Source: an uncultured Christensenellaceae bacterium (lineage in GTDB: Bacteria; Bacillota; Clostridia; Christensenellales; UBA1242). Taken from it: DNA of 64,000 nt. Shown here in pieces: positions 5,601 through 21,842 of the stretch (the first letter of the stretch is position 1; each line of letters begins with the position of its first letter). Both the position numbers and the translations under genes were made by a program. The stretch lies in the NCBI GenBank assembly GCA_910587225.1, contig CAJULT010000002.1, positions 26,963-90,962 of the forward strand. Reading direction: 5' to 3'. A model generated the notes under the pieces. That model was not told where the DNA came from, made no database searches, and saw nothing but the letters and a program-made list of their open reading frames with translations.

Positions 5601-6410
5601 CTAGCTCCAAGCGAAAAAGTTGCCGATTTCATTCCAAAAATACCCAAAAACTGCCTTTATCTTCTCCCACCAGAGAGTATTATTGGATTTAGCCGTTGAA
5701 ACATCTCTAATAATTACCTTTACAACGCCTACTACTTGCTCTTCGGTGCAAGTGCCATTTATTCTCGCATCAAGGCTTGCCCCGCGGTTGTCCCCCATGT
5801 AGAAAATCTCACCTTCTGGCACTTCCACAAAGTAGGTGTCACCCTCGTAACTTACATCATATCGGTTGACAAAATGCGACTCAGGCTCTAAAGTTGCTTT
5901 CAAAAAGGTTTCATAAAAGCGGCTTTCATAAACTTCACTGCCAAAAGTTATGCCCTCATCATACGACCAGCCGGGGTAGGAAAGAATGTAATCTTCCTGC
6001 AAAATCTCAATATTCTCACTTCCGTCACGGATAACTGAAACGCGGTACTGATTGTCATATTCGTCATACTTGCGAATGGAAATCTTATCTCCGCCCTTTG
6101 CTATTACGCGTTTGATTATGGTATTTACACGATCTTCAAGTTTGATAATAATGATATCGTTTACATTTATCTGTTCATTATATTTTATATACACCCCGTC
6201 TTTAACCGATTGCTCTGATAGCCCCGCATTTATTGTAGGCTGCATCGACGTTCCGCTGACAGGATAGTAACGATAATTAGCTAAAAAGATATACCTTCCC
6301 ACCATAAAAGCAATAAAAAGTGCAATAAAGACGGCAGAAATGCCGCTGACAACATTTAAAAATTTGTCACCTTTCCCTTTCTTTACTTGTACCTTTTGCG
6401 GTGTTTCCAT
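5601..6410 (-). CDS. lepB: Signal peptidase I (S26 family)
   Basis: N-terminal membrane anchor. Catalytic Ser box SGTSMQPTI, KRVIAKGGD Lys box and GDNRGASLDAR box. Confidence 0.85.
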   Translation of the reverse strand: METPQKVQVKKGKGDKFLNVVSGISAVFIALFIAFMVGRYIFLANYRYYPVSGTSMQPTINAGLSEQSVKDGVYIKYNEQINVNDIIIIKLEDRVNTIIKRVIAKGGDKISIRKYDEYDNQYRVSVIRDGSENIEILQEDYILSYPGWSYDEGITFGSEVYESRFYETFLKATLEPESHFVNRYDVSYEGDTYFVEVPEGEIFYMGDNRGASLDARINGTCTEEQVVGVVKVIIRDVSTAKSNNTLWWEKIKAVFGYFWNEIGNFFAWS

Positions 6411-10530: not shown

Positions 10531-11592
10531 TTAACTAAAAAACTTTTCGTTATACACTACGCACTTATCAGTTGGTTTAAGCTTTTTTGCAATGTTATGA
10601 TAGTGTTTTGCACGCTTTTTTTGACCTTTGCGGTAATAACAAACGCAGAGCTGCAAAGCTGGCGTAAAGTCATAGCAATCAGTTATCACAAATCCACCCT
10701 TCTTAATATTAGGATGAAGCACTCTTGCCAGTTTAAACCAATATATAGCTTCATCATACCTTTCAAGCGTGATATATATCGCTCCTATCTCACAAAGGAC
10801 TTCCCCTCTTGGAAGTGCCATTTGGAAGGTTCGGAAAAGGCTACCAAGTGCCTTGTCATAATCTTTTTCCATTTGATAACAACGAGCAAGGTTAAGACAT
10901 GCTTCAATGTTATTTTCAATCCAACCATTTTTAGAGGCTAAGAATGCTTCGAACTCATTAATTGCCGCATTTATTTGTCCGTTAAAGTAAAGCTCCCTTG
11001 CATAGTAAAATTGCTGACGCGGCGAAAGCTTGTTTCCTTTTTCAATAAACTTTTGATAAATTCGCAGGTTTCGCCCCTTTGCTGACGGTTTTTCTTTACA
11101 GTGATAAATTTGCACATTCATATATTCAATTTTCCCACGCGGCACAATCACTTCATGCACTGGATCTTGCCACTGAAAATTCTTATCTCGCCTTACAAGA
11201 CGCTCACGATAAAAAGAGAACTCGGGCTTTAAATCTTTTGAAAATGCTGTCACATATTTTAGCATGTATACATCAGTGTCACTTGGCCGCGAAAGTTTAA
11301 AATCCCAAATCTTTAATATGTCATCATCAAAGATTACGTCATCTGCATCTAACCACATGATATAGTCACGCGTTGCTTTAGAAAATGAAAAATTGCGAGC
11401 GGCAGCAAAGTCGTCTATCCACTTGAAATCATAAACCTTATCAGTATATCTTTTGGCAATTTCACGGGTATCATCAGTAGAGCCAGTATCTACAACTATA
11501 AGCTCATCAGCAAACTTTTTTACGCAATCTAGACATCTGGGCAAAACTTCTTGTTCATCCTTAACGATTAGACACACACTAATTTGGTTCAT
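10531..11592 (-). CDS. Family-2 glycosyltransferase with C-terminal TPR repeats
   Basis: GT-A motifs SVCLIVKDEQEVL, VVDTGSTDDT and WLDADD, followed by TPR-like helices (YYARELYFNGQINAAINEFEAFL...YDEAIYWFKLA). Confidence 0.8.
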   Translation of the reverse strand: MNQISVCLIVKDEQEVLPRCLDCVKKFADELIVVDTGSTDDTREIAKRYTDKVYDFKWIDDFAAARNFSFSKATRDYIMWLDADDVIFDDDILKIWDFKLSRPSDTDVYMLKYVTAFSKDLKPEFSFYRERLVRRDKNFQWQDPVHEVIVPRGKIEYMNVQIYHCKEKPSAKGRNLRIYQKFIEKGNKLSPRQQFYYARELYFNGQINAAINEFEAFLASKNGWIENNIEACLNLARCYQMEKDYDKALGSLFRTFQMALPRGEVLCEIGAIYITLERYDEAIYWFKLARVLHPNIKKGGFVITDCYDFTPALQLCVCYYRKGQKKRAKHYHNIAKKLKPTDKCVVYNEKFFS

Positions 11593-11918
11593 AAATTACT
11601 CCTAAACTATCTTTATGAAAGCAGAAAAATATGTGTGAAAAATAAATAAAAATTAAAAAAATAACCATTTTTTAATAATTTTTTTCGCATTTTTATTAAT
11701 TTTTTATTTAATTTTTAATTAATTATTAAATTTAAAAAATTAATTTAATTAAAAAAATATTTATTCCCCTTATTTTTCGGGCAAAAATAATGCTAAAAAT
11801 TAGGTATAATATTTATATATTATATAAAAATAATAATATTAAATAATGCAAAATATTTGGTTTTTCGCGGTCAATGTGTTAAAATCTTTTTATCTAAAGA
11901 AAGGAAAGAGGTGGGGTT
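11593..11918. promoter_or_regulatory. Extremely AT-rich divergent intergenic region (promoters of the GT2-TPR gene and the giant surface protein gene)
   Basis: 326 bp of almost pure A/T with phased A/T tracts and TTAATTAA-type palindromes. Candidate -10 elements are TATAAT near 11806 and an extended TGTTAAAAT near 11876. GAGGTGG RBS before ATG 11919. Confidence 0.5.
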
Positions 11919-14900
11919 ATGTTTAAATATAAAAAACTATTTTCTCTCATATCAATTGTGACGCTCGGCACTCTAGGTCTGGGCGCTGGTCTTTTGACCA
12001 AAGATTCACAAAGCGCAAGTGCAGAATTTGCCGCGAGCGTTCCGTCTATCAACAAGACTGAATATGAATTTTTGGATGTGAATACATCATCGCTTTCTCG
12101 TTACGAAAAATCTCATGACAACTCCTACCTCTTTGTAAACCCTTCCGAACAAGTTTCTTTAAATATTGCAAACAATGAAGTAAAAATTAAAGCTGAAGAA
12201 AACAGCGGGAAAGACTACTACACAAATTATGCATATATGCCTGATGAAACAAACCCTAATGATTACACCTATTTCAACTTTGACGCCTCTACCATTGCCC
12301 TCTACTACGATACTGACGCTGATGGTGCAGCTAGTAAAGTTTCCAGCGGCAGCGACAACCTTTTCGCTTTACTTGATAAATCAAAATTCTTTGAGTCGCA
12401 CAACGACTCTAAATACATACCAACCTATGACCTTATGCCTCAAAGGTTTGAAATGAATTTCAGCTTAAATGTGGCAAACACGGAAATTACACAAACAGGC
12501 AACGAAGTCGTTTTAGACAGAGAAGGACTATATACATTAGTTCTTCCTTACACTAAATATCACACTTCTAACGGCGAACAAACTTTTGACGCGCCAGAAG
12601 GCGGAACGCTGTACTACACCTTTACCGCTTTCAACTACCTCACCTACTTCACAAACTCAAACCCTAACTTGACCGTAAATACTGAGCAGGCAGGTATTGA
12701 AAAACGAACACTTACTACAAGCCTTACCCATTCAGCAAGTTATTTCTACAACTACTCAGGCACAGATAACGAGCTTCCAAACTTTAGTTACAATCCAAAC
12801 CGTTACCAAGTGATCATCACCTATTACAAGACGGAAGGCAAAAATACCATTACATACAAATCTAAAATCGAATATGACAAGGCAAGCAAAACCATATCTC
12901 ATAAAGAAGCCGACCCGCTCAAAGCTGGCTATGGGGAAGAGCTTGCCGAAAAAGACAGACTTGTAGACGCTTACATCCCAAGCGAAGGGAATGAGCAAAA
13001 CCTACACCTTGTATTTAACAATCTTGGTGAATACGACCTTCAATTTGATTATATCTATGTTGCGGGAGATAACACAATTTACACCCTCCCACTTACAACT
13101 AAAAGACAAAAGGTTTTCTGCTATGGCTATCAAGTTTCTTACACCGACTATGAAACCGAAGACTCTAGCAGCGGCGTTATGGCTGAATCTAAGGAACTTA
13201 AAACAGTAGTAAATGGCAAAATCGAAGAAAGCGCAGATATTACCTACCTTGTAAACACCACAGGACTTCATCAACATAGTTCCGATGCATACTCTATTGA
13301 TGCAATTAAAGAAAAAGCACAAAATTTTATACAAGCAAGAAATCTTAGTACCACTGGTGACTATCATATTAATCCTATTTCAACAAACCAAGTACCTATT
13401 AAGTTTAGTTCTAACGTGAAAAGAAGCACGTACGACACCAAAACCGAACTTGGCGGAGCAAAGATTTACAAAGTTGATAAAGATAGAAATCTCGTCGACG
13501 AAGACGATTTTGATGGTACAAATATCAACGAGCCTGGTACATATCTAGTTATCATTGACTACACCTTTGATAGTTACGCTGGCGACAACGGTGCGCCAAG
13601 AAACACCTATCACCACTATCAAGTGCTATATTTTACAGTCAGAAATAATATTCCGACAATCAGCGTTTACGACCAAGCTGGAAAACCAATTCATACACTC
13701 AATCCTGAGCAAGGTCAAGGTTATACAAATCAAAATGTCTACATCATTGATGAAAATGCTGAGCTCGACTATGACGCAAAATCAATTATTACTATCTCTG
13801 CCGAAGATTTTAGCGGAAATGTTATCATCCCTGAAACCAATATCAAAAACTTTGTAGGAAGTTATTACAGCGGCATACACTATGAAGAACAGTTTGACGA
13901 CACTCCTGCCCACCCAGCAAGCGGCAAAACTGTGCTATGGATTGAAAGTGGTTTAGCTCCTAACGCAAAATACACAGTAAGAGTTACCTCTACTGCAATC
14001 ACCGATTATTCAAGCAGACAATTTATTATTGATACCTCTTCAATTAGCGGGCTTTCAGCAAACTATGTTGAATATGTGGCAAATTCAAGTTACAAAGCGC
14101 GCGACACAATTGTCACCTATAATCAAAACAATATTGCGCAAAATATTGGACTATCTAACCAACCTATTATTTTCAGTTGGCAACCAAAATTGAGCGGAGC
14201 TAACACTTATGGCTACTATCAATTCTACCCTATTGAAAGTTTAAACTATTATTCACACTCAAATGACTCCTCTCTTCTTGATACATTACTTTATAGCTTA
14301 GAAAAACCTATGCTCCCTACCGAAAACAAACTTGAACTCACCGAGTTAAAAGATTGGGATGAATACAAAAATGCTAAGGATGTGCTTCAAAAATATGTTC
14401 CTGAATCTTATGTTCGTTCACAAGCCGGCTTATATATCTTTGAAGTTTACGACGACGCAGGCAACAGCAGCGTAATTATCACCTTACTTGATAACACAAA
14501 TCCTATATTTGTTAAAAAGGCAACCCCAAAAGACGGCAGTTTTGATGAATGGACTGTTCTTTCTTCAAGCGACACCATTGCTGCAACTGACGCTTACGCA
14601 CAAACTCAAATCCTTTGGGGCAAATACAAAGGGCTATACATCAACTACAATCAAAATACTAATCCTCTTTTCTCAACTGAATTAAAACATGCAAATAATG
14701 CGGAAATACCTGAAAGTGATAACAATGACAACTTACAACAAACTATAAAAGCATTCTTTGATAGTTTCGTTGAAACGCTTTCTATAGACTCACTTGCAGG
14801 CAGCCCTCCAGATGGCACTATTAACAGTTATGACGGAGATTATATCCACATTGCAATAGCAAACAACTTCTTCGCTAAGCATGCCGAAGACAGCGAATAC

Positions 14901-17900
14901 AAACCATTGTCTGGTAATTCCTATTCAATCACCCTGCTTCGCAATGATGAAGCAATTGAAGGTACTTATAGCATTCTTCTTCGTGACAGCTCAAACAGCC
15001 AAGGGGCTAACAACGAGCATGGATTCCTCAACTACCCAAGTGGAAACGCAACTATTACCGTCACAAGTGACGCGTCAAGACTTGAAGTGGTTATACCAAA
15101 TGGTGACGGAGAACTCACCCCACTTATGAAAGAAGGTTACACCCTTTCGGGCAACTTCTATTCTCATACTAAAAAACTCAATAACGATACTGGGGAAACA
15201 GAAACTAAAATCAATAAAAATCCTGAACAGGAAACGGACGACATAAGTTGGGAAAGCACTAGTGACAGATTCAAATATAGCTATTATCAACCAACTAAGA
15301 CAACAAAATCATTATCTCTTTCATACATTCCTCGCCCTGTAAATGGCAGCGAAGTTGAAAGTATAGAGGTAGAGTATTATGCTCCATCTACATCCACGAC
15401 TGCTTTTGAAACAAAGCCAAGTGGGTCAAAAGATGAGGTGGCAGAAAAAATCACCTATATTACCTACGAAAATGAACCGACCACTAGAATTCCTGTTTAT
15501 CCTATTTCAACAGAAACCAATATTACGGAAGGAAAAGCATATACTTTTGATTTAGCCCTTCAAAGTGGAAAAGAGGTATCTGACGGAAAATATGTAATTA
15601 CCCGTAAATACAAAGCAGGCTCAGAACAAATTATCAAGGAGTCTTACGACTTCTTTGAAAGAACATTAACTCTTATCATTGATAGAGAAAATGTTATCTC
15701 CTACCCTCAAGATGTAAGTACAAAGGACAAGAATGGCAAAGATCAGTTTTCTTCTCAATCCTATATCGGTGCTGACATTCTTCTTAGTATGTACTCAGAA
15801 GCGGAGCAAGGTGGCATCAATGTTTCCTTCCCTACCTTAAATGAATATGGGCTTAACTCTGGCTTATTATTCTCAAGCCAAACATCAGAGGATGCTGATA
15901 TTACTCCAAGACTTTACACAAACAAGCTTCCTCTCACCCTTAATGTCCCTGCCTATAAATATACAATGGGACATAAATACATTGAAGGAAATTCCTACTC
16001 AACCGAATTTAACAATCTTCTTAATACTATGGGTGATTCCCGAATTGAACCATTCAAAGAAAATGGAGTAACTTCTTACAAAGTTTATGTTGAAGGTATT
16101 CTTGCACAAACCTTTGATAACGAATCCGAAGCGCTAGCATATCTTGCTAAAACTCAAATGGTTTCTATGAAACTTACAGTTGAAGTGGCTTATAATGGAG
16201 AGGAAGAATTTTATAAGTCTAACGGGACACAATCAAACGGATACCTTAACTTATATAAAGTAAATTCATTATTTGAAACCCCTACTTCGTCAACTCCTGC
16301 AAAATTCACCAAACCGGGAATATATGATGTAACAATTCATCAAGCTTATGGCACAGGATCAATAGGTGAAGACTTTAAATCAAGTTATCGTTTCCGCTTT
16401 GAAGTAACCTCAACTAAACCTGAGTTTACTCTAAAAAATGCGGATGGAAAAGTTTTACAAAGTGCACCTGGAAAAGCAGGCACTGAAACATACTATACAA
16501 ATACAGATGAATTAACTGTTGAATGGGAAGACCCTACAAGTCCATACCTTGCAAAAATAAATAAAGGGAATATTCGCGTATTTGCTAATAACGTTTGGAC
16601 GACTATATCTGCCGAAAATATTATTACTTCTGGAAATCATCACCACTTTAAACTTAATTGCAAAGACTTAACAAAAGGCAACGCAATACAGATAGTCATG
16701 GAATTCGAGGGACATGACAGCTATTATCAAAAGACAACGAAAGAAATTGTTTTTGATAAAACTGCTCCATTACAAAATCTCAATAGTCTTATTTCAAAAG
16801 TAACAAGTGCATACCCTACTTTCGACGCTATATACATTCAAACACATGCAAGAAAGCTATTTACAGCAGACGGCACAACCGAAATTAGACTTGACGACTT
16901 GTTGGATGAAAGATATCTTGAAACCAGATTGGAAGAAGTTGGCTATTCTTACACAATTGAGGAAAATGAGCTTACTAATTACGCATATCTTGTAAACGAA
17001 AAATATTTCAATTTATTAAAAGAAAGTTTAAAATCAAACAGTAATTACGATTGGAAAAGCGCAGATTCAATCTACTTCCGTGAAATTAAAAACTATAAAG
17101 AATATACTCAAACTAAAGGTACTTTTAATGAAGAGAATTACTTTAAAGTAAAAGATATTGATGAAAACTTTACAATTAACAACGCAGGTTACTACGAAGT
17201 TATAGAAACCGACTACGCAGGCAATATGACCGTTTATGTAGTGTATGTCGCTGGACAAGGTGAAAAAGATTATAAAGATAATAAAAAAGGTATTACTTAC
17301 GAAAACAAACTCACAATAAACTCCGGCGAAAATGCTTGTTTCTCTGACGAGTTTATTGAAAGTCAAAAAACAATTTATAGCGATACTCAATTTAAAGCAA
17401 CTAGCCTTAACTACCGTGGTGACGAATGGGGCATATATGAAATTGAATTGTATGGCATAAAAAGAGTGTACATGAGAAGCCCGCATCTTAGCGATGGTGA
17501 AATTTACCAGGTAATGGGCAGGAAATTCAAAACAGTTAGCATAAATTCTATATTTAATAATATTACTCACAACACTCGCCTACAGAACCTTAAAGTTTCA
17601 AATCGCGCAACGGGAATTAATTATAATGTTAAGCTTGCCTTTATGGATAATACTGAACTATATTATAAAGTAACGGACGCTGAAAAGAGTGTTGTTCTCA
17701 CAATCAACATGCCTAACGCAAACACAATTGCCTCAATGGGCTGTGTATACCCTGTATCTATTAAAGTTGAAAATTATCTCGATGAATGGAACGAACTTGA
17801 TACATTATCATATCCTAACTGGACAAGCTCAAATAAAAACATTATTGTAACTACTCTTGGCAATAACTTAGTAATTACTGCATCTATTGGCAGCTCAAAT

Positions 17901-20327
17901 TCAGCAAAGCTGCGTTATACAATCGTTGATAACTTTGGAAAAACCACTACCTTCTCACACCTTGCGAATGCTCCGAAGTTTCCAACTGTTGAAAGCACGG
18001 GCGAGATTATTGAAATTTCAGAAGGCAGCAATGAGGTAACTTATATTTCAAATGGTCAACTAAACTATCAATATAACGAAAAAATATATAGCTGTAAAGT
18101 TTACCTCAACGATAAAGAAGTTGATTGGAATTCTTACCCATATAAAGGATTTGACGGCATTGTGTCACTTAGATTTGGCTCTACTGAATCAAACTATGAT
18201 AAACTTTACACATTAAAGTTGTTTGATAGCGAAACAGGTGTACATGAAAGCACTGTTTATATTAGACTATACAATCGCTTACCAGTATTCACCACTTCGG
18301 AAGATGATCTTAAAGATGAATCTGTTCAAAAACTATGGGTACGCGACAATTACAACAAATTGATAAACAACGCAACATCTCGCACTGAAACTGTCAAATT
18401 TAATGGCAAAGTTTACACTGGCTCTGCACACGTAATTAATACTTATTCAACCAACCTTACAGTCCAGTTTGACAATGGACAAAAGCTCAATGCTGCGCAC
18501 CCAAATGCGCATTCTAAAGGCTATTCATACAGCGTATATGCAAGCTATGACGGCGCAAACTGGATTAACATAAATAATATGTATAATGGTTTCACCCTCA
18601 AAACAGATGGTAGTGAAAAGTTGAACTGCAAGCTACTTATTGTCTATGACGACCTATTTAACTATGCATGTGAAATTTATGATATAAACATTCTTGACAG
18701 TGAATCAGCTCACTATTACGTTATGGTTGACGATCAAATCGTTGAAAAAGCAAATATAATCTTGACTGCTCCTGATGACCCAACCCAACAATATGGCACT
18801 AACTATATTGTAGCTGTAGATTATTACCATGACAGTGATAGAGTTAAAATCATCTCAGCTCCTGGATTTGAAGTAATTTATCAAGGCTTTATTCCTACAA
18901 CTGACCCAAGCATTAGGATAAACCACTATAAATTCCAAGGCAAAGAAGCTACAAATAAGAATCTTACCGGAGAATTCACAGTAATATATTTGAAACCTGA
19001 AAGCAAATTTTTAAACACCTTAAATTGGCAAGACCCATCTGGTGACCTACCTAGCCTACTTGATGAAACTTCTAAGACTATTACAGCTTATGAAAAAGAT
19101 GGGCAGGCAGGAAAGGCTCACCCTCTTGAAAAGCTTAAACTCACATGGTCTGGTTACTATGGTATTAGAGAAAACGCTGTAGAAATTGAAATTGAAAAAT
19201 GGTTTGACGGAAGATATATCCCTGTAAATATCGAAACCCACACAAATGGTGACGAAAGATATGGATATATCACCCGCGCAGGGAAATATCGCATAAAATT
19301 CCATGACCAGTCATCCCCTCGCAATTATCAAACATTCGGATCGGGAAATGTTACAGAACTTGAACTAACCTTTATAAACAATGTACCATTCCTTGTGACT
19401 TACAATGACGAAAACGGACAGAGCATAACAACTGAACCATTTGAACACGCTGTTTTCAATGGCGAAGTAAAGATTACACTTGCTGACCTTTCAACATATT
19501 TCCGTGATGGATACCCAACAGTTGAAGTAAAACGCAATGGCAAATCGATTTCGGTTACTCCATCCAACTATGTTTACAGTTTCAATCAACCTGGATATTA
19601 TGTTGTAAGTTTCGTTATTCCAGAGAATGGAACAAAGATTAGAACGGCTGACTACGCCTTTACAATTCTAGGCAAAAATGAAAGTCGCTATGCATATGAA
19701 TTCTCCCCTTACAAAAATTACCATATCACAAAGGTAGTTCGTGACGGAGATGACATAACCGCAGACCTTGTAGCACTTTCAAATAATAACCTAATTATTA
19801 ACGGAAAACCATATCTATCAAGACTTAGTGTAAGTTGCTTTGATGATAAAACTGGCACTGGTAGATATACTGTTACCATAAACACAGGCGATCCTTACTA
19901 TTCAAATATAACCTCTAGTTCATTTACCTTTGACTTCTGGATTAATGATGCTACCCCACTCATTAACGTTTCAGTAGGAAGAGGTGAAAGTACAACAAAC
20001 CGAATCTACGCAACCTTTGATGCTTATTCACTTTATGAAACAGTTGGTGATTGCGTAATTAAAATTGGCTCACAGGAAACGCCTATCAATGCTGATACAC
20101 TTGAAGCAGTTGGCGGAGCTAATGCAACAGTATATGTTCCTGAAGCTGAAGGCACATACTATATTCAAATCTTCACAACTGGCGGAAACCTTTTGTTCAG
20201 CTATAAGGTTGTTAAAACAAAACCTTTAGACACTTGGACAATTATAGCTATTGTAATTGCAGTCATTGCAGTTGTAGCAATTGCACTTATTACAATCTTA
20301 CTTAGAAAACGCTTAAAGGTTAAATAA
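11919..20327 (+). CDS. Giant (2802 aa) secreted surface protein, C-terminal TM-anchored, with diverged Ig-like repeats (putative adhesin)
   Basis: Signal peptide MFKYKKLFSLISIVTLGTLGLGAGLL...SASA. C-terminal helix WTIIAIVIAVIAVVAIALITILL plus basic tail RKRLKVK. At least 12 G-x-Y-x-h-x-h strand motifs, including GLYIFEVYDDAGNSS and GYYEVIETDYAGNMTVYVVYV. Confidence 0.75.
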   Translation: MFKYKKLFSLISIVTLGTLGLGAGLLTKDSQSASAEFAASVPSINKTEYEFLDVNTSSLSRYEKSHDNSYLFVNPSEQVSLNIANNEVKIKAEENSGKDYYTNYAYMPDETNPNDYTYFNFDASTIALYYDTDADGAASKVSSGSDNLFALLDKSKFFESHNDSKYIPTYDLMPQRFEMNFSLNVANTEITQTGNEVVLDREGLYTLVLPYTKYHTSNGEQTFDAPEGGTLYYTFTAFNYLTYFTNSNPNLTVNTEQAGIEKRTLTTSLTHSASYFYNYSGTDNELPNFSYNPNRYQVIITYYKTEGKNTITYKSKIEYDKASKTISHKEADPLKAGYGEELAEKDRLVDAYIPSEGNEQNLHLVFNNLGEYDLQFDYIYVAGDNTIYTLPLTTKRQKVFCYGYQVSYTDYETEDSSSGVMAESKELKTVVNGKIEESADITYLVNTTGLHQHSSDAYSIDAIKEKAQNFIQARNLSTTGDYHINPISTNQVPIKFSSNVKRSTYDTKTELGGAKIYKVDKDRNLVDEDDFDGTNINEPGTYLVIIDYTFDSYAGDNGAPRNTYHHYQVLYFTVRNNIPTISVYDQAGKPIHTLNPEQGQGYTNQNVYIIDENAELDYDAKSIITISAEDFSGNVIIPETNIKNFVGSYYSGIHYEEQFDDTPAHPASGKTVLWIESGLAPNAKYTVRVTSTAITDYSSRQFIIDTSSISGLSANYVEYVANSSYKARDTIVTYNQNNIAQNIGLSNQPIIFSWQPKLSGANTYGYYQFYPIESLNYYSHSNDSSLLDTLLYSLEKPMLPTENKLELTELKDWDEYKNAKDVLQKYVPESYVRSQAGLYIFEVYDDAGNSSVIITLLDNTNPIFVKKATPKDGSFDEWTVLSSSDTIAATDAYAQTQILWGKYKGLYINYNQNTNPLFSTELKHANNAEIPESDNNDNLQQTIKAFFDSFVETLSIDSLAGSPPDGTINSYDGDYIHIAIANNFFAKHAEDSEYKPLSGNSYSITLLRNDEAIEGTYSILLRDSSNSQGANNEHGFLNYPSGNATITVTSDASRLEVVIPNGDGELTPLMKEGYTLSGNFYSHTKKLNNDTGETETKINKNPEQETDDISWESTSDRFKYSYYQPTKTTKSLSLSYIPRPVNGSEVESIEVEYYAPSTSTTAFETKPSGSKDEVAEKITYITYENEPTTRIPVYPISTETNITEGKAYTFDLALQSGKEVSDGKYVITRKYKAGSEQIIKESYDFFERTLTLIIDRENVISYPQDVSTKDKNGKDQFSSQSYIGADILLSMYSEAEQGGINVSFPTLNEYGLNSGLLFSSQTSEDADITPRLYTNKLPLTLNVPAYKYTMGHKYIEGNSYSTEFNNLLNTMGDSRIEPFKENGVTSYKVYVEGILAQTFDNESEALAYLAKTQMVSMKLTVEVAYNGEEEFYKSNGTQSNGYLNLYKVNSLFETPTSSTPAKFTKPGIYDVTIHQAYGTGSIGEDFKSSYRFRFEVTSTKPEFTLKNADGKVLQSAPGKAGTETYYTNTDELTVEWEDPTSPYLAKINKGNIRVFANNVWTTISAENIITSGNHHHFKLNCKDLTKGNAIQIVMEFEGHDSYYQKTTKEIVFDKTAPLQNLNSLISKVTSAYPTFDAIYIQTHARKLFTADGTTEIRLDDLLDERYLETRLEEVGYSYTIEENELTNYAYLVNEKYFNLLKESLKSNSNYDWKSADSIYFREIKNYKEYTQTKGTFNEENYFKVKDIDENFTINNAGYYEVIETDYAGNMTVYVVYVAGQGEKDYKDNKKGITYENKLTINSGENACFSDEFIESQKTIYSDTQFKATSLNYRGDEWGIYEIELYGIKRVYMRSPHLSDGEIYQVMGRKFKTVSINSIFNNITHNTRLQNLKVSNRATGINYNVKLAFMDNTELYYKVTDAEKSVVLTINMPNANTIASMGCVYPVSIKVENYLDEWNELDTLSYPNWTSSNKNIIVTTLGNNLVITASIGSSNSAKLRYTIVDNFGKTTTFSHLANAPKFPTVESTGEIIEISEGSNEVTYISNGQLNYQYNEKIYSCKVYLNDKEVDWNSYPYKGFDGIVSLRFGSTESNYDKLYTLKLFDSETGVHESTVYIRLYNRLPVFTTSEDDLKDESVQKLWVRDNYNKLINNATSRTETVKFNGKVYTGSAHVINTYSTNLTVQFDNGQKLNAAHPNAHSKGYSYSVYASYDGANWININNMYNGFTLKTDGSEKLNCKLLIVYDDLFNYACEIYDINILDSESAHYYVMVDDQIVEKANIILTAPDDPTQQYGTNYIVAVDYYHDSDRVKIISAPGFEVIYQGFIPTTDPSIRINHYKFQGKEATNKNLTGEFTVIYLKPESKFLNTLNWQDPSGDLPSLLDETSKTITAYEKDGQAGKAHPLEKLKLTWSGYYGIRENAVEIEIEKWFDGRYIPVNIETHTNGDERYGYITRAGKYRIKFHDQSSPRNYQTFGSGNVTELELTFINNVPFLVTYNDENGQSITTEPFEHAVFNGEVKITLADLSTYFRDGYPTVEVKRNGKSISVTPSNYVYSFNQPGYYVVSFVIPENGTKIRTADYAFTILGKNESRYAYEFSPYKNYHITKVVRDGDDITADLVALSNNNLIINGKPYLSRLSVSCFDDKTGTGRYTVTINTGDPYYSNITSSSFTFDFWINDATPLINVSVGRGESTTNRIYATFDAYSLYETVGDCVIKIGSQETPINADTLEAVGGANATVYVPEAEGTYYIQIFTTGGNLLFSYKVVKTKPLDTWTIIAIVIAVIAVVAIALITILLRKRLKVK

Positions 20328-20355
20328 AAAAGAAGGCAAACGCCTTCTTTTTTTA
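20328..20355 (+). terminator. Rho-independent terminator
   Basis: AGAAGGC-AAAC-GCCTTCT hairpin followed by T7, directly after the stop at 20327. Confidence 0.9.
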
Positions 20356-20374
20356 CTTAATATAAAATTTTATC

Positions 20375-20402
20375 TTGACAAAATCTGAAAGTATGATATT
20401 AT
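20375..20402 (+). promoter_or_regulatory. Sigma-A promoter with extended -10
   Basis: TTGACA (20375-80), 16-nt spacer, TGaTATTAT (20394-20402). The ORF-track start 20375 is the -35 box itself. Confidence 0.7.
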
Positions 20403-20428
20403 TTAACTATACAAAGGAGGGAACTTGT

Positions 20429-20941
20429 ATGACAATGGAAAACAAAAACTTTTTAAGACCTGCACTTACTCAAATTTTAGCTGAACATCTTAAAAAGAAT
20501 GATATTTCTATATCAGACCCAAAAAATCTTGCTTTTTCTAGTTTTGAATGTGATAAGAGTGAAAAGCAAATATTAAACTCAACCCTATATACCATGCTAC
20601 AAAAGAAGAAACTTGCAAACTTTGATAGTCTTGCGGAAAATTATCTTCAACTCGCTGTTGCAAAAAACCAGTTTGAACTAGGGGTTGGGAAATCGAGTTT
20701 AGAAAAAGCTCAAATAGCAGGTATAGAGGATTTATCTTTTTACCAAAGAATTAAAGAAGTATTGCTTGAAGGCGCTATAAAAGTTGGAGCTAACAGCAAG
20801 TTGGAACTTGAAGCATACCTTGACTTTCTTTCAGCTAATGCCAAAACACTGTGGAACAAGACTGCTTGCACAGGCAGATGGCTAATATTTGGGGAAATTG
20901 AAAGCGAAATCACACACGAACTTTCATTTCAAGATGAATAA
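20429..20941 (+). CDS. Hypothetical helical protein (170 aa)
   Basis: AAGGAGGG RBS before ATG 20429. No signal peptide or TM segment. No family recognised. Confidence 0.55.
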   Translation: MTMENKNFLRPALTQILAEHLKKNDISISDPKNLAFSSFECDKSEKQILNSTLYTMLQKKKLANFDSLAENYLQLAVAKNQFELGVGKSSLEKAQIAGIEDLSFYQRIKEVLLEGAIKVGANSKLELEAYLDFLSANAKTLWNKTACTGRWLIFGEIESEITHELSFQDE

Positions 20942-20952
20942 GGAGAGAACTT

Positions 20953-21372
20953 ATGGAAGAAAATAGCATGTTTCAAAATGAAATTCAAACTCTTGAAAAA
21001 ATTACTATAGATACCGTTACAAGAATTGAGCAACTTAAGCAAATCAAAAGCAGCCTCCTTGACAAACAACTTTTAGCCGGCGGCGCATTTGCAGAGCCTG
21101 CAAGCAAAGTTATCAGCCTTGACAGCAAAGCGAATGATTTGCTCAAAAAATATAACAAATTACTAAAAGAACTCGGCCCTGCCATTGAATGGTTTAACGT
21201 TGCAATTTACGCAGATGCAAAAACGCAAAGATATGCCTACAAATACTGCATAGATATCCTTCCTAATAGGTTTGCACACCTTGAGAAGATGGCGAAAAGT
21301 TATGCCAGCAGCACACATACGAGGCTTAAAAAAGAAGGCTCACGCCTTCTTTTTTGTGGCATAAACGCCTGA
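20953..21372 (+). CDS. Hypothetical coiled-coil-like protein (139 aa)
   Basis: AAGGAGAG RBS 11 nt after the previous stop. Heptad-like N-terminus. The last ~15 codons run through a terminator hairpin. Confidence 0.5.
   Translation: MEENSMFQNEIQTLEKITIDTVTRIEQLKQIKSSLLDKQLLAGGAFAEPASKVISLDSKANDLLKKYNKLLKELGPAIEWFNVAIYADAKTQRYAYKYCIDILPNRFAHLEKMAKSYASSTHTRLKKEGSRLLFCGINA
21328..21356 (+). terminator. Rho-independent terminator (near-copy of 20328-20355)
   Basis: AGAAGGC-TCAC-GCCTTCT hairpin followed by T6. 25 of 28 nt identical to the terminator after the giant gene. Confidence 0.8.
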
Positions 21373-21420
21373 TGAGTCAGCCAACTTCCATATCTGCCCT
21401 CCTCACCTTCTATTTTACTC

Positions 21421-21428
21421 GGGGGGGG
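21421..21428. repeat. G8 homopolymer abutting a -35-like TTGTCA
   Basis: GGGGGGGG at 21421-21428 sits 2 nt upstream of TTGTCA (21431-36), in otherwise AT-rich intergenic DNA. Confidence 0.9.
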
Positions 21429-21471
21429 ATTTGTCAAGTAAATTCCGCGGTTTATAAATTTTCTTTTATTA

Positions 21472-21499
21472 TTGACAAAACCGCGAAATTTGATATAAT
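21472..21499 (+). promoter_or_regulatory. Sigma-A promoter with extended -10
   Basis: TTGACA (21472-77), 16-nt spacer, TGaTATAAT (21491-99), about 20 nt upstream of ATG 21520 with an AGGAGAG RBS. Confidence 0.7.
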
Positions 21500-21519
21500 A
21501 TTTCTAGGAGAGTTTATAT

Positions 21520-21810
21520 ATGAAATTTAGAACATTTACTTTAGAAGAAGTAGCTGAAGAGCTGGATAAGGCTATTTCAAAAGCCAACAGCTACAAAGAG
21601 TCTATAGAAGGTGTGCAAAATATCGAAGCACAAAAAATTAGACTTCATTGCAGGCATATCATTTTAAAAGCTAAGTCCTTTAAAGAAGGCTTGGTTAGCG
21701 CTAACTTAAATTTCCCTCATAAACAGTTGGAACTGTTTACAACTATTCAAAATATAGCAAATGAGTTTAATACTATTGAAAACAAGCTTAACCATTTAGA
21801 AGAGCAATAA
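21520..21810 (+). CDS. Hypothetical small helical protein (96 aa)
   Basis: Consensus promoter, RBS and downstream terminator. The sequence looks all-helical. No family recognised. Confidence 0.55.
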   Translation: MKFRTFTLEEVAEELDKAISKANSYKESIEGVQNIEAQKIRLHCRHIILKAKSFKEGLVSANLNFPHKQLELFTTIQNIANEFNTIENKLNHLEEQ

Positions 21811-21839
21811 AAAAACTTGCAAATAATGCAAGTTTTTTA
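21811..21839. terminator. Bidirectional terminator (96-aa gene / rplA)
   Basis: AACTTGCA-AATAA-TGCAAGTT hairpin flanked by A- and T-runs. Confidence 0.85.
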
Positions 21840-21842
21840 TTA

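Follow-up and report, generated by a model that had tools for sequence, protein, structure and literature searches.

What does a bacterium with a genome of less than 1 Mb do with a single gene of 8.4 kb, and what kind of protein does this gene encode? The question is raised by a stretch of 64,000 nucleotides from an uncultured Christensenellaceae bacterium (GTDB family UBA1242; contig CAJULT010000002.1 of assembly GCA_910587225.1, positions 26,963 to 90,962), which is called the window here and to which nucleotide positions refer unless another contig is named. One open reading frame (ORF) on the forward strand, 11919-20327, begins with ATG and encodes 2,802 aa without interruption, as had been noted in a preliminary description of this DNA, and it is the largest ORF of the window, the runner-up having 1,037 aa. 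Bacteria of the family UBA1242 occur widely in the guts of animals and humans and are uncultured. The genome at hand is a draft of 979,339 bp in 36 contigs (96.8% complete), and the loci of the relatives discussed below come from gut metagenome genomes. Genomes of UBA1242 are mostly smaller than 1 Mb, lack biosynthetic pathways for amino acids, for nucleotides and for lipids, have an incomplete glycolysis and neither ATP synthase nor standard transporters, and keep sporulation genes, and the family has been predicted to live as an obligate symbiont or parasite (PMC12306168). Candidatus Caccovivens, which is the GTDB genus UBA11517, belongs to this family of the order Christensenellales (PMC8035907), and in chickens UBA1242 has been negatively associated with body weight (PMC13155120).

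It is fairly probable, if well short of certain, that the gene product is a fibre for adhesion or contact which spans the wall and is specific to the UBA1242 lineage. The 316-kDa protein would be exported by the Sec pathway as a type I membrane protein, its signal peptide would be cut after SASA (residue 35), and a single transmembrane helix at the C-terminus, followed by a basic cytoplasmic tail of seven residues, would hold it in the membrane. The ectodomain of 2,730 residues would form a non-repetitive chain of roughly two dozen Ig-like modules (the number is an estimate), each of them orthologously conserved, and many would end in a hairpin of a G-x-Y F-strand, a D-x-A-G-N turn and a G-strand, followed by a D-x-T-x-P linker. 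As peptidoglycan is present and sortase is absent, the passage through the wall is most likely made by the four modules nearest to the membrane, which are the best conserved, and the more variable distal modules would project as a fibre and touch something outside the cell. As the family lacks most biosynthesis and transporters, the fibre would most likely attach to a partner or host cell at its surface, or else to gut material. The analysis shows the ORF, its topology signals and fold class, how the gene is distributed, its synteny and its constant length, whereas projection from the surface, passage through the wall and a function in adhesion are inferred; the evidence is considered now point by point.

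The protein is acidic (pI 4.9), consists to 34% of T, S, N and Y, and contains nine Cys. A Kyte-Doolittle hydropathy scan with 19 residues finds exactly two hydrophobic segments, residues ~7-27 and 2767-2801. The first is the core of a predicted Sec signal peptide with an AXA cleavage site (SASA/E), as had been suggested before; A35 is invariant in an alignment of 31 sequences, nearly all of the ~64 full-length orthologs share the signal-like N-terminal pattern MxKxKKLFNS, and a gene of an S26 signal peptidase is found at 5601-6410 of the window. The second segment has the sequence WTIIAIVIAVIAVVAIALITILL and is followed by RKRLKVK at the carboxyl end. Nearly all full-length orthologs end in RK[RK]xx[VAIT]K, mostly as LRKRxKVK, and in the 31-sequence alignment R2796 and K2802 are invariant. 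The hydrophobic helix and the basic stop-transfer tail of the preliminary description are therefore both present and conserved. Its term "C-tail-anchored" holds with respect to the single C-terminal anchor, but it is not the right term: a signal peptide, one C-terminal transmembrane helix and a positive-inside tail predict what is strictly a type I single-pass protein, with a Sec signal and a stop-transfer sequence. Helix and tail (residues 2773-2802) are the best-conserved segment of the whole protein (0.72-0.95), and as this is beyond the needs of a generic stop-transfer sequence, it suggests that they couple to a specific membrane or cytoplasmic partner.

For an attachment to the wall, no basis was found. 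A motif scan detected no LPXTG, NPQTN, LPXTA or LAXTG anywhere in the protein, and Pfam at E<=1 detected no SLH, CWB2 or choline-binding domain, in agreement with what had been read from the sequence by eye. A sortase (PF04203) was found neither in this genome nor in 11 of 12 congeners. Control genomes were positive in the same search, as were 6 of the 8 other families of the order that were sampled. The genome encodes two PBP transpeptidases, and as the family also keeps sporulation genes, a peptidoglycan wall exists; a membrane-anchored protein must then cross this wall to reach the outside. The signal peptide and the single helix with its basic tail, the lack of a sorting motif and of a sortase, and the presence of a wall together support the reading as a permanent membrane anchor, which is what the preliminary description had proposed, and the surface exposure that it had also assumed is a prediction. 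Further proteins of this genome have a C-terminal helix with a basic tail (5,973, 1,360, 1,141, 366, 279 and 202 aa), with no common motif ahead of the helix, and anchoring in the membrane seems to be the rule in this sortase-less lineage. As to the one congener that gave a positive result in the sortase search, its genome (G272) has three sortase-domain matches (C16:2404-2907, C8:1874-2371 and C13:7537-7749), which may be a secondary acquisition or a bin contamination.

The second line of evidence concerns the fold. The strands of the type G-x-Y-x-h-x-h, by which Ig-like modules had been suspected in the first place, are all where they had been described: the eleven strings quoted were found, and 11 matches to the strict pattern G.Y.[VILFMY].[VILFMY] were counted, where 2,000 shuffles gave 1.3 +/- 1.1 on average and 6 at most. 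AlphaFold models cover residues 36-1190 (pLDDT 83.5, pTM 0.55, 70 strands; model m2c34c8d4c204) and residues 1191-2385 (pLDDT 82.0, pTM 0.53, 74 strands and 13 helices; model m9e1229079ca6). Both consist to 43-44% of strand and to 8-11% of helix, which amounts to 144 strands over 2,350 residues. Each occurrence of the motif in the modelled part is the start of a predicted beta-strand, in several cases with a short turn and another strand after it, and the G and the Y of the motif are mostly invariant across the protein family. Foldseek searches with these models against the PDB matched exclusively tandem arrays of Ig, FN3 and MG domains, with probabilities of up to 1.00 and with low TM-scores, as is expected for flexible chains. 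For the middle tile there were 185 matches at E<=1e-3, all to such arrays, and the distal tile matched Ig arrays of MDGA1, RPTP-sigma, Sap, Bap and GhpA. Overall, the matches include contactin-2, Robo2, the leptin and OSM receptors, MDGA1, RPTP-sigma and the MG domains of alpha-2-macroglobulin, and on the bacterial side the Ig-like domains of PrgB, Bap, GhpA and the S-layer proteins Sap, EA1 and HPI. An Ig-like beta-sandwich as the fold class, which had been claimed before, is hence supported by the models of residues 36-2385.

The membrane-proximal stalk was assigned from the spacing of the motif and from profile links. Its G-x-Y strands lie at 2455, 2559, 2648 and 2745, that is 104, 89 and 97 residues apart, and hhalign links residues 2455-2545 to the modelled sandwich 2095-2167 at 83% and residues 2555-2590 to 1462-1510. 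One stretch of the middle part, residues ~1619-1815, is of mixed alpha/beta type with helical insertions (~200 aa), and since it still ends in an invariant YYEhhExDxAGN hairpin, it is read as an elaborated sandwich and not as an enzyme domain. The modules had been described as too diverged for a repeat at the DNA level, and indeed neither such a repeat nor a regular repeat at the protein level is present. An internal repeat array was rejected as well, as an hhalign comparison of all 110-aa alignment windows against each other yielded just a few weak links between modules, among them 538-615 with 1465-1532 at 86%.

In contrast to the fold class, a membership in known families of such domains, proposed as "HYR/DUF5011-type", is not borne out at the profile level. 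Pfam gave no family for the query at E<=1, NCBIfam gave no meaningful match, and neither did a sequence search of the PDB with the query or with profiles of the three tiles, whose alignments were made of 65 orthologs taken from DNA loci. In a relaxed Pfam scan of 17 diverse members no family recurred, and there was no HYR (PF02494), no DUF5011 (PF16403) and no Big; PKD_4 was seen in 2 of the 17 at E = 0.02. The helical repeat modules FIVAR and GA matched neither the query nor the 17 members in Pfam. A relationship to phages was considered and rejected, as the matches to viral structures in BFVD are generic FN3 and Big arrays.

The third line of evidence is the distribution of the gene. The protein exists in a single copy in its genome. 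A word-indexed search returned 31 relatives of 2,733-2,957 aa, the full-length ones being 24-38% identical and mostly aligned over ~100% of the query, and in addition a fragment of 2,131 aa in the protein collection that is 100% identical to the query. A search of one genome per species gave 252 DNA stretches that encode relatives, from which 64 full-length orthologous ORFs of 2,718-2,991 aa were recovered. With a profile of the C-terminal 381 residues, which was used for the searches of the family, the order and the protein set, matches were found in 93 of 121 UBA1242 genomes and in 44 of 58 genera, nearly always one per genome and in open frames of ~2,300-3,460 aa. The other families of the order (193 genomes) gave two marginal matches of 18 bits. 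Among 1.84 billion representative proteins there were 314 matches, and the best 150 of the 314 all have the same architecture of 2,400-3,200 aa or are fragments thereof. Diverged copies hidden in the negative genomes were considered and rejected, as a longer profile added one marginal match of 22 bits (E 1.9e-5), located in a frame of 2,570 aa in genome G155, and in six genomes without the gene no giant ORF is found in the syntenic slot beside rplA. Judged by these searches, the gene is widespread though not universal in UBA1242, and it is restricted to that family. The gene order around it is conserved in 39-59 loci, with a divergent gene of a GT2-TPR protein and a nucleoside hydrolase gene (IUNH) upstream and a convergent rplA-rplK-nusG group downstream, which points to a vertical inheritance.

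The protein evolves fast and at the same time keeps its length. Between species it is 25-40% identical, as compared to 74-91% for the ribosomal protein L1 and 47-66% for the GT2-TPR protein, and the mean column identity rises from 28% in the distal part over 30% in the middle part to 42% in the stalk, helix and tail being highest. This fast divergence and its gradient from the tip to the stalk are consistent with a surface-like evolution. A comparison of lengths among relatives shows that the length is fixed within species, where clusters of up to 42 sequences share an identical length (2806, 2768 and 2821 aa in three clusters, mostly 2818 aa in a fourth), and that it is nearly constant between species and genera (2,718-2,991 aa in ~64 orthologs), without any repeat array. 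Within species the sequences are 97-99.5% identical, with substitutions spread along the chain and a mild N-terminal bias. Hypervariability or phase variation within species was considered and not found.

Some of these observations weigh against a contact fibre. No ligand-binding domain, lectin or known adhesin tip has been recognised, and classic repeat adhesins vary their repeat number by strain, whereas here the length is fixed and the chain is non-repetitive. Within species there is no hypervariable tip, and the pTM values of 0.53-0.55 hint at some fixed packing between the domains. Furthermore, ~14 genera of UBA1242 do without the gene, the syntenic slot included, and the gene is thus not indispensable for the lifestyle of the family.

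The main rival is an envelope scaffold, spacer or S-layer-like coat, i.e. an abundant structural element whose length and domain order are fixed by the architecture that is built or measured and not by the binding of an outside target. Such a role would agree well with a length that is fixed within species and nearly so across genera, with domains that are non-repetitive and individually conserved, and with the lack of a hypervariable tip. The AT-rich tract, the strong Shine-Dalgarno sequence and the strong terminator, which are kept in the orthologs, are the usual marks of a monocistronic gene with strong expression, Sap, EA1 and HPI, all of them S-layer proteins, are among the structural matches, and the high conservation of the transmembrane helix and tail suggests a specific membrane partner. 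However, the S-layer matches are no better than those to other Ig arrays (TM-scores <0.25), there is no SLH or CWB2 module by Pfam, and bacterial S-layers are not usually made of membrane-anchored monomers of 316 kDa. The gene is missing from about a quarter of the genomes of the family, which would be odd for an essential envelope element, and the five other giant surface proteins of the genome could equally be components of a coat. A scaffold is therefore regarded as a serious but rather unlikely alternative to the contact fibre.

Improbable is a function in capture or defence, for example as a protease trap of the alpha-2-macroglobulin type or as a surface platform that binds nutrients or polymers. 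It came into consideration as the middle tile matches MG-domain arrays of bacterial and eukaryotic alpha-2-macroglobulin and C3 proteins at E ~1e-8, and as the lack of standard transporters in this organism (PMC12306168) makes a capture of substrates at the surface conceivable. Yet the TM-scores to these arrays are below 0.1, none of the nine Cys is part of a C-x-E-Q thioester motif, and the models contain no all-helical thioester domain, the sole helix-rich stretch being the mixed alpha/beta region of ~200 aa. In the 31-sequence alignment ~120 columns are invariant, mostly G, Y, W, P, F, D and N and thus residues that determine a fold, and the absence of any invariant His or Cys among them argues against a catalytic site. 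Also no catalytic or carbohydrate-binding family was matched in Pfam or NCBIfam.

Very improbable is a third alternative, according to which the C-terminal helix and tail would not be a permanent anchor but a sorting signal that is cleaved, either for wall attachment or by another sorting enzyme. The tripartite appearance (a conserved P-L-N, the hydrophobic stretch and the basic tail) and the unusually high conservation would fit to such a signal, but they are opposed by the lack of an LPXTG-type motif, by the sortase search with its positive controls, and by the absence of a common pre-helix motif in the other C-tail-anchored proteins of the genome. That the gene is an assembly artefact or a decaying pseudogene with a still open frame, for which nothing speaks beyond the draft status of 36 contigs, has a practically negligible chance in view of ~64 independent full-length orthologs that are free of stops and colinear from end to end, of open frames in 93 genomes, of the length-identical species clusters, and of the identical 2,131-aa fragment.

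If the contact fibre is accepted, its origin can be considered. It is an attractive but doubtful idea that the family arose at the base of a large UBA1242 clade together with genome reduction, as a tether to a partner cell and thus as a Gram-positive equivalent of the machinery with which Patescibacteria and other episymbionts attach themselves. In that case the fixed length would set the distance from cell to cell, and the transmembrane helix and tail would couple to a partner in the membrane.

Giant Ig-like surface proteins are well known as a kind, and judged by its sequence this family belongs to none of those with which it was compared. The Ebh/Embp proteins of Staphylococcus are giant Sec-exported proteins that have a C-terminal transmembrane helix with a basic tail and do not depend on LPXTG and sortase; they are made up of helical FIVAR/GA modules in highly repetitive arrays, and their length varies. 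The mode of anchoring and an ectodomain that must cross the wall are what they have in common with the UBA1242 protein, and nothing else, as the latter is made of beta-sandwiches with little helix, is non-repetitive and of fixed length, and has no FIVAR/GA match. Bap (PDB 7c7u), PrgB (8beg), SasG/Aap and adhesins with BIg repeats (SiiE) are likewise chains of Ig-like domains that project a binding region. Such tandem adhesins have repeats that are recognised by Pfam, in near-identical copies and in a number that varies by strain, and use LPXTG or type I secretion, whereas the protein described here has no Pfam match, modules that barely resemble each other, and a constant length. Sap and EA1 of Bacillus anthracis (PDB 6hhu and 8opr) are similar in that they also form a non-repetitive series of distinct beta-sandwiches on the surface of a Firmicute, but they have ~800 aa, are bound to the wall by SLH domains and form lattices, while the UBA1242 protein is anchored by a transmembrane helix, lacks SLH and is 3.5 times as large. 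The giant proteins of Omnitrophota have more than 30,000 aa, many transmembrane regions, and SecA-DEAD and carbohydrate-degrading domains (bioRxiv 10.1101/2023.11.21.568195). Like in the case of UBA1242, small-celled and partner-dependent bacteria there invest heavily in very long proteins that have little annotation and have been implicated in attachment, but the protein in question has 2,802 aa, one transmembrane helix and no enzymatic domain, and belongs to a Firmicute. A published description of this protein was not found in the literature consulted.

The interest of the gene comes mainly from its setting, which is the genome of less than 1 Mb of an uncultured and probably partner-dependent gut lineage. 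In this genome, six ORFs of at least 2,800 aa (6,333, 5,973, 3,623, 3,328, 3,153 and 2,802 aa) take up 25,212 codons, i.e. 7.7% of the genome, and an intact gene of 8.4 kb is kept at the same chromosomal place across dozens of genera, which marks such proteins as central to the life of this bacterium. Three of the six begin with lipobox-like signal peptides, and the one of 5,973 aa ends in a transmembrane helix and a poly-Arg tail. The 2,802-aa protein has no detectable sequence similarity to the other five, and a search of the genome with it returns only itself. In practice, the protein could serve as a handle for antibodies, for fluorescence in situ hybridisation and labelling, for binding screens with a recombinant tip, and as a marker gene, and it could help to find the partner and to bring the lineage into enrichment or culture. 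To protein science it offers a long non-repetitive chain of Ig modules that have diverged past recognition by sequence, in constant length and order.

Table 1. Positions of the protein regions, of the flanking signals of the giant gene, and of the other giant ORFs
Feature	Position	Strand	Remarks
AT-rich tract	11609..11858	.	inside the 326-bp divergent intergenic region common to the giant gene and the GT2-TPR gene
Candidate promoter	11857..11885	+	TTGGTT, 17-nt spacer, TGtTAAAAT (extended -10); inferred by reading the sequence
Shine-Dalgarno sequence GAGGTG	11908..11913	+	5 nt upstream of ATG
Signal peptide, residues 1-35	11919..12023	+	predicted; MFKYKK, hydrophobic core, SASA/EF cleavage context; no lipobox
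Distal ectodomain, residues 36-1190	12024..15488	+	~ten predicted beta-sandwich modules, long strands near the tip; least conserved
Middle ectodomain, residues 1191-2385	15489..19073	+	predicted beta-sandwich modules, one with helical insertions
Membrane-proximal stalk, residues 2386-2766	19074..20216	+	four putative modules of ~97 aa; best-conserved part of the ectodomain; from motif spacing and profile links
C-terminal transmembrane helix, residues 2773-2795	20235..20303	+	predicted; Kyte-Doolittle peak 3.4
Basic cytoplasmic tail RKRLKVK and stop codon	20304..20327	+	predicted; ends of the orthologs alike
Rho-independent terminator	20326..20353	+	12-pair hairpin and U-run; shares two bases with the stop codon
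Five other giant ORFs (genome contigs)	C4 16240-35241 (-), C3 64535-82456 (-), C7 23896-34767 (+), C8 24152-34138 (-), C3 38319-47780 (-)

The gene is flanked by signals of its own (Table 1). The AT-rich tract upstream has a GC content of 11.2%, which makes it the most AT-rich 250 nt of the window and places it among the lowest 0.015% of all 250-nt windows of the genome, and it contains the longest run of only A and T in the window, 77 nt at 11689-11765, so that the unusually long AT-only upstream region of the preliminary description is real. At the orthologous loci the upstream regions are likewise AT-rich (mean GC 16.6%, against 33.9% for the whole loci), and the tract may be an UP-element or a promoter region of curved DNA. 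A consensus promoter scan does not report the candidate promoter because its -35 element fits at just 3 of 6 positions. GAGGTG also stands ahead of the start codon in most orthologs. The strong terminator that had been ascribed to the gene has a folding energy (dG) of -14.6 kcal/mol with z = -5.3; a simple pattern scan for terminators did not pick up this hairpin, and comparable hairpins are found 3' of the stop codon in most orthologs. By these signals, the giant gene is predicted to be a conserved monocistronic unit.

Of the neighbours, the gene at 10531-11592 on the reverse strand encodes the GT2-TPR protein, a cytoplasmic glycosyltransferase of the GT2 family (GT-A) that is fused to TPR repeats. 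It adjoins the giant gene in 39 close loci. Its best resemblance in NCBIfam is to SunS-type peptide S-glycosyltransferases, with 52 bits as compared to a cut-off of 350, and this is only a lead. An obligate partnership of the two proteins was considered and rejected, as the GT2-TPR gene is missing from 8 of 20 genomes that have the giant gene and present in 3 of 16 that do not, and the two are sometimes far apart. Downstream, three small ORFs (182, 139 and 96 aa) sit at 20356-21842 between the giant gene and rplA; as candidate partners they were rejected, since none of 76 orthologous loci contains a homolog of them. From the giant gene to rplA, the spacer measures ~0.75 to 7.3 kb across the loci, and with the lack of homologs of the small ORFs this indicates a slot for variable insertions within a region that is otherwise syntenic. 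In one genus without the giant gene, three tandem ORFs of ~717-794 aa are located downstream of rplA (L080, G222:C4, 702-7591). At least two of them begin with a hydrophobic signal-like segment, one of these segments with a lipobox-like LSACG, and these ORFs may be functional substitutes for the giant protein.

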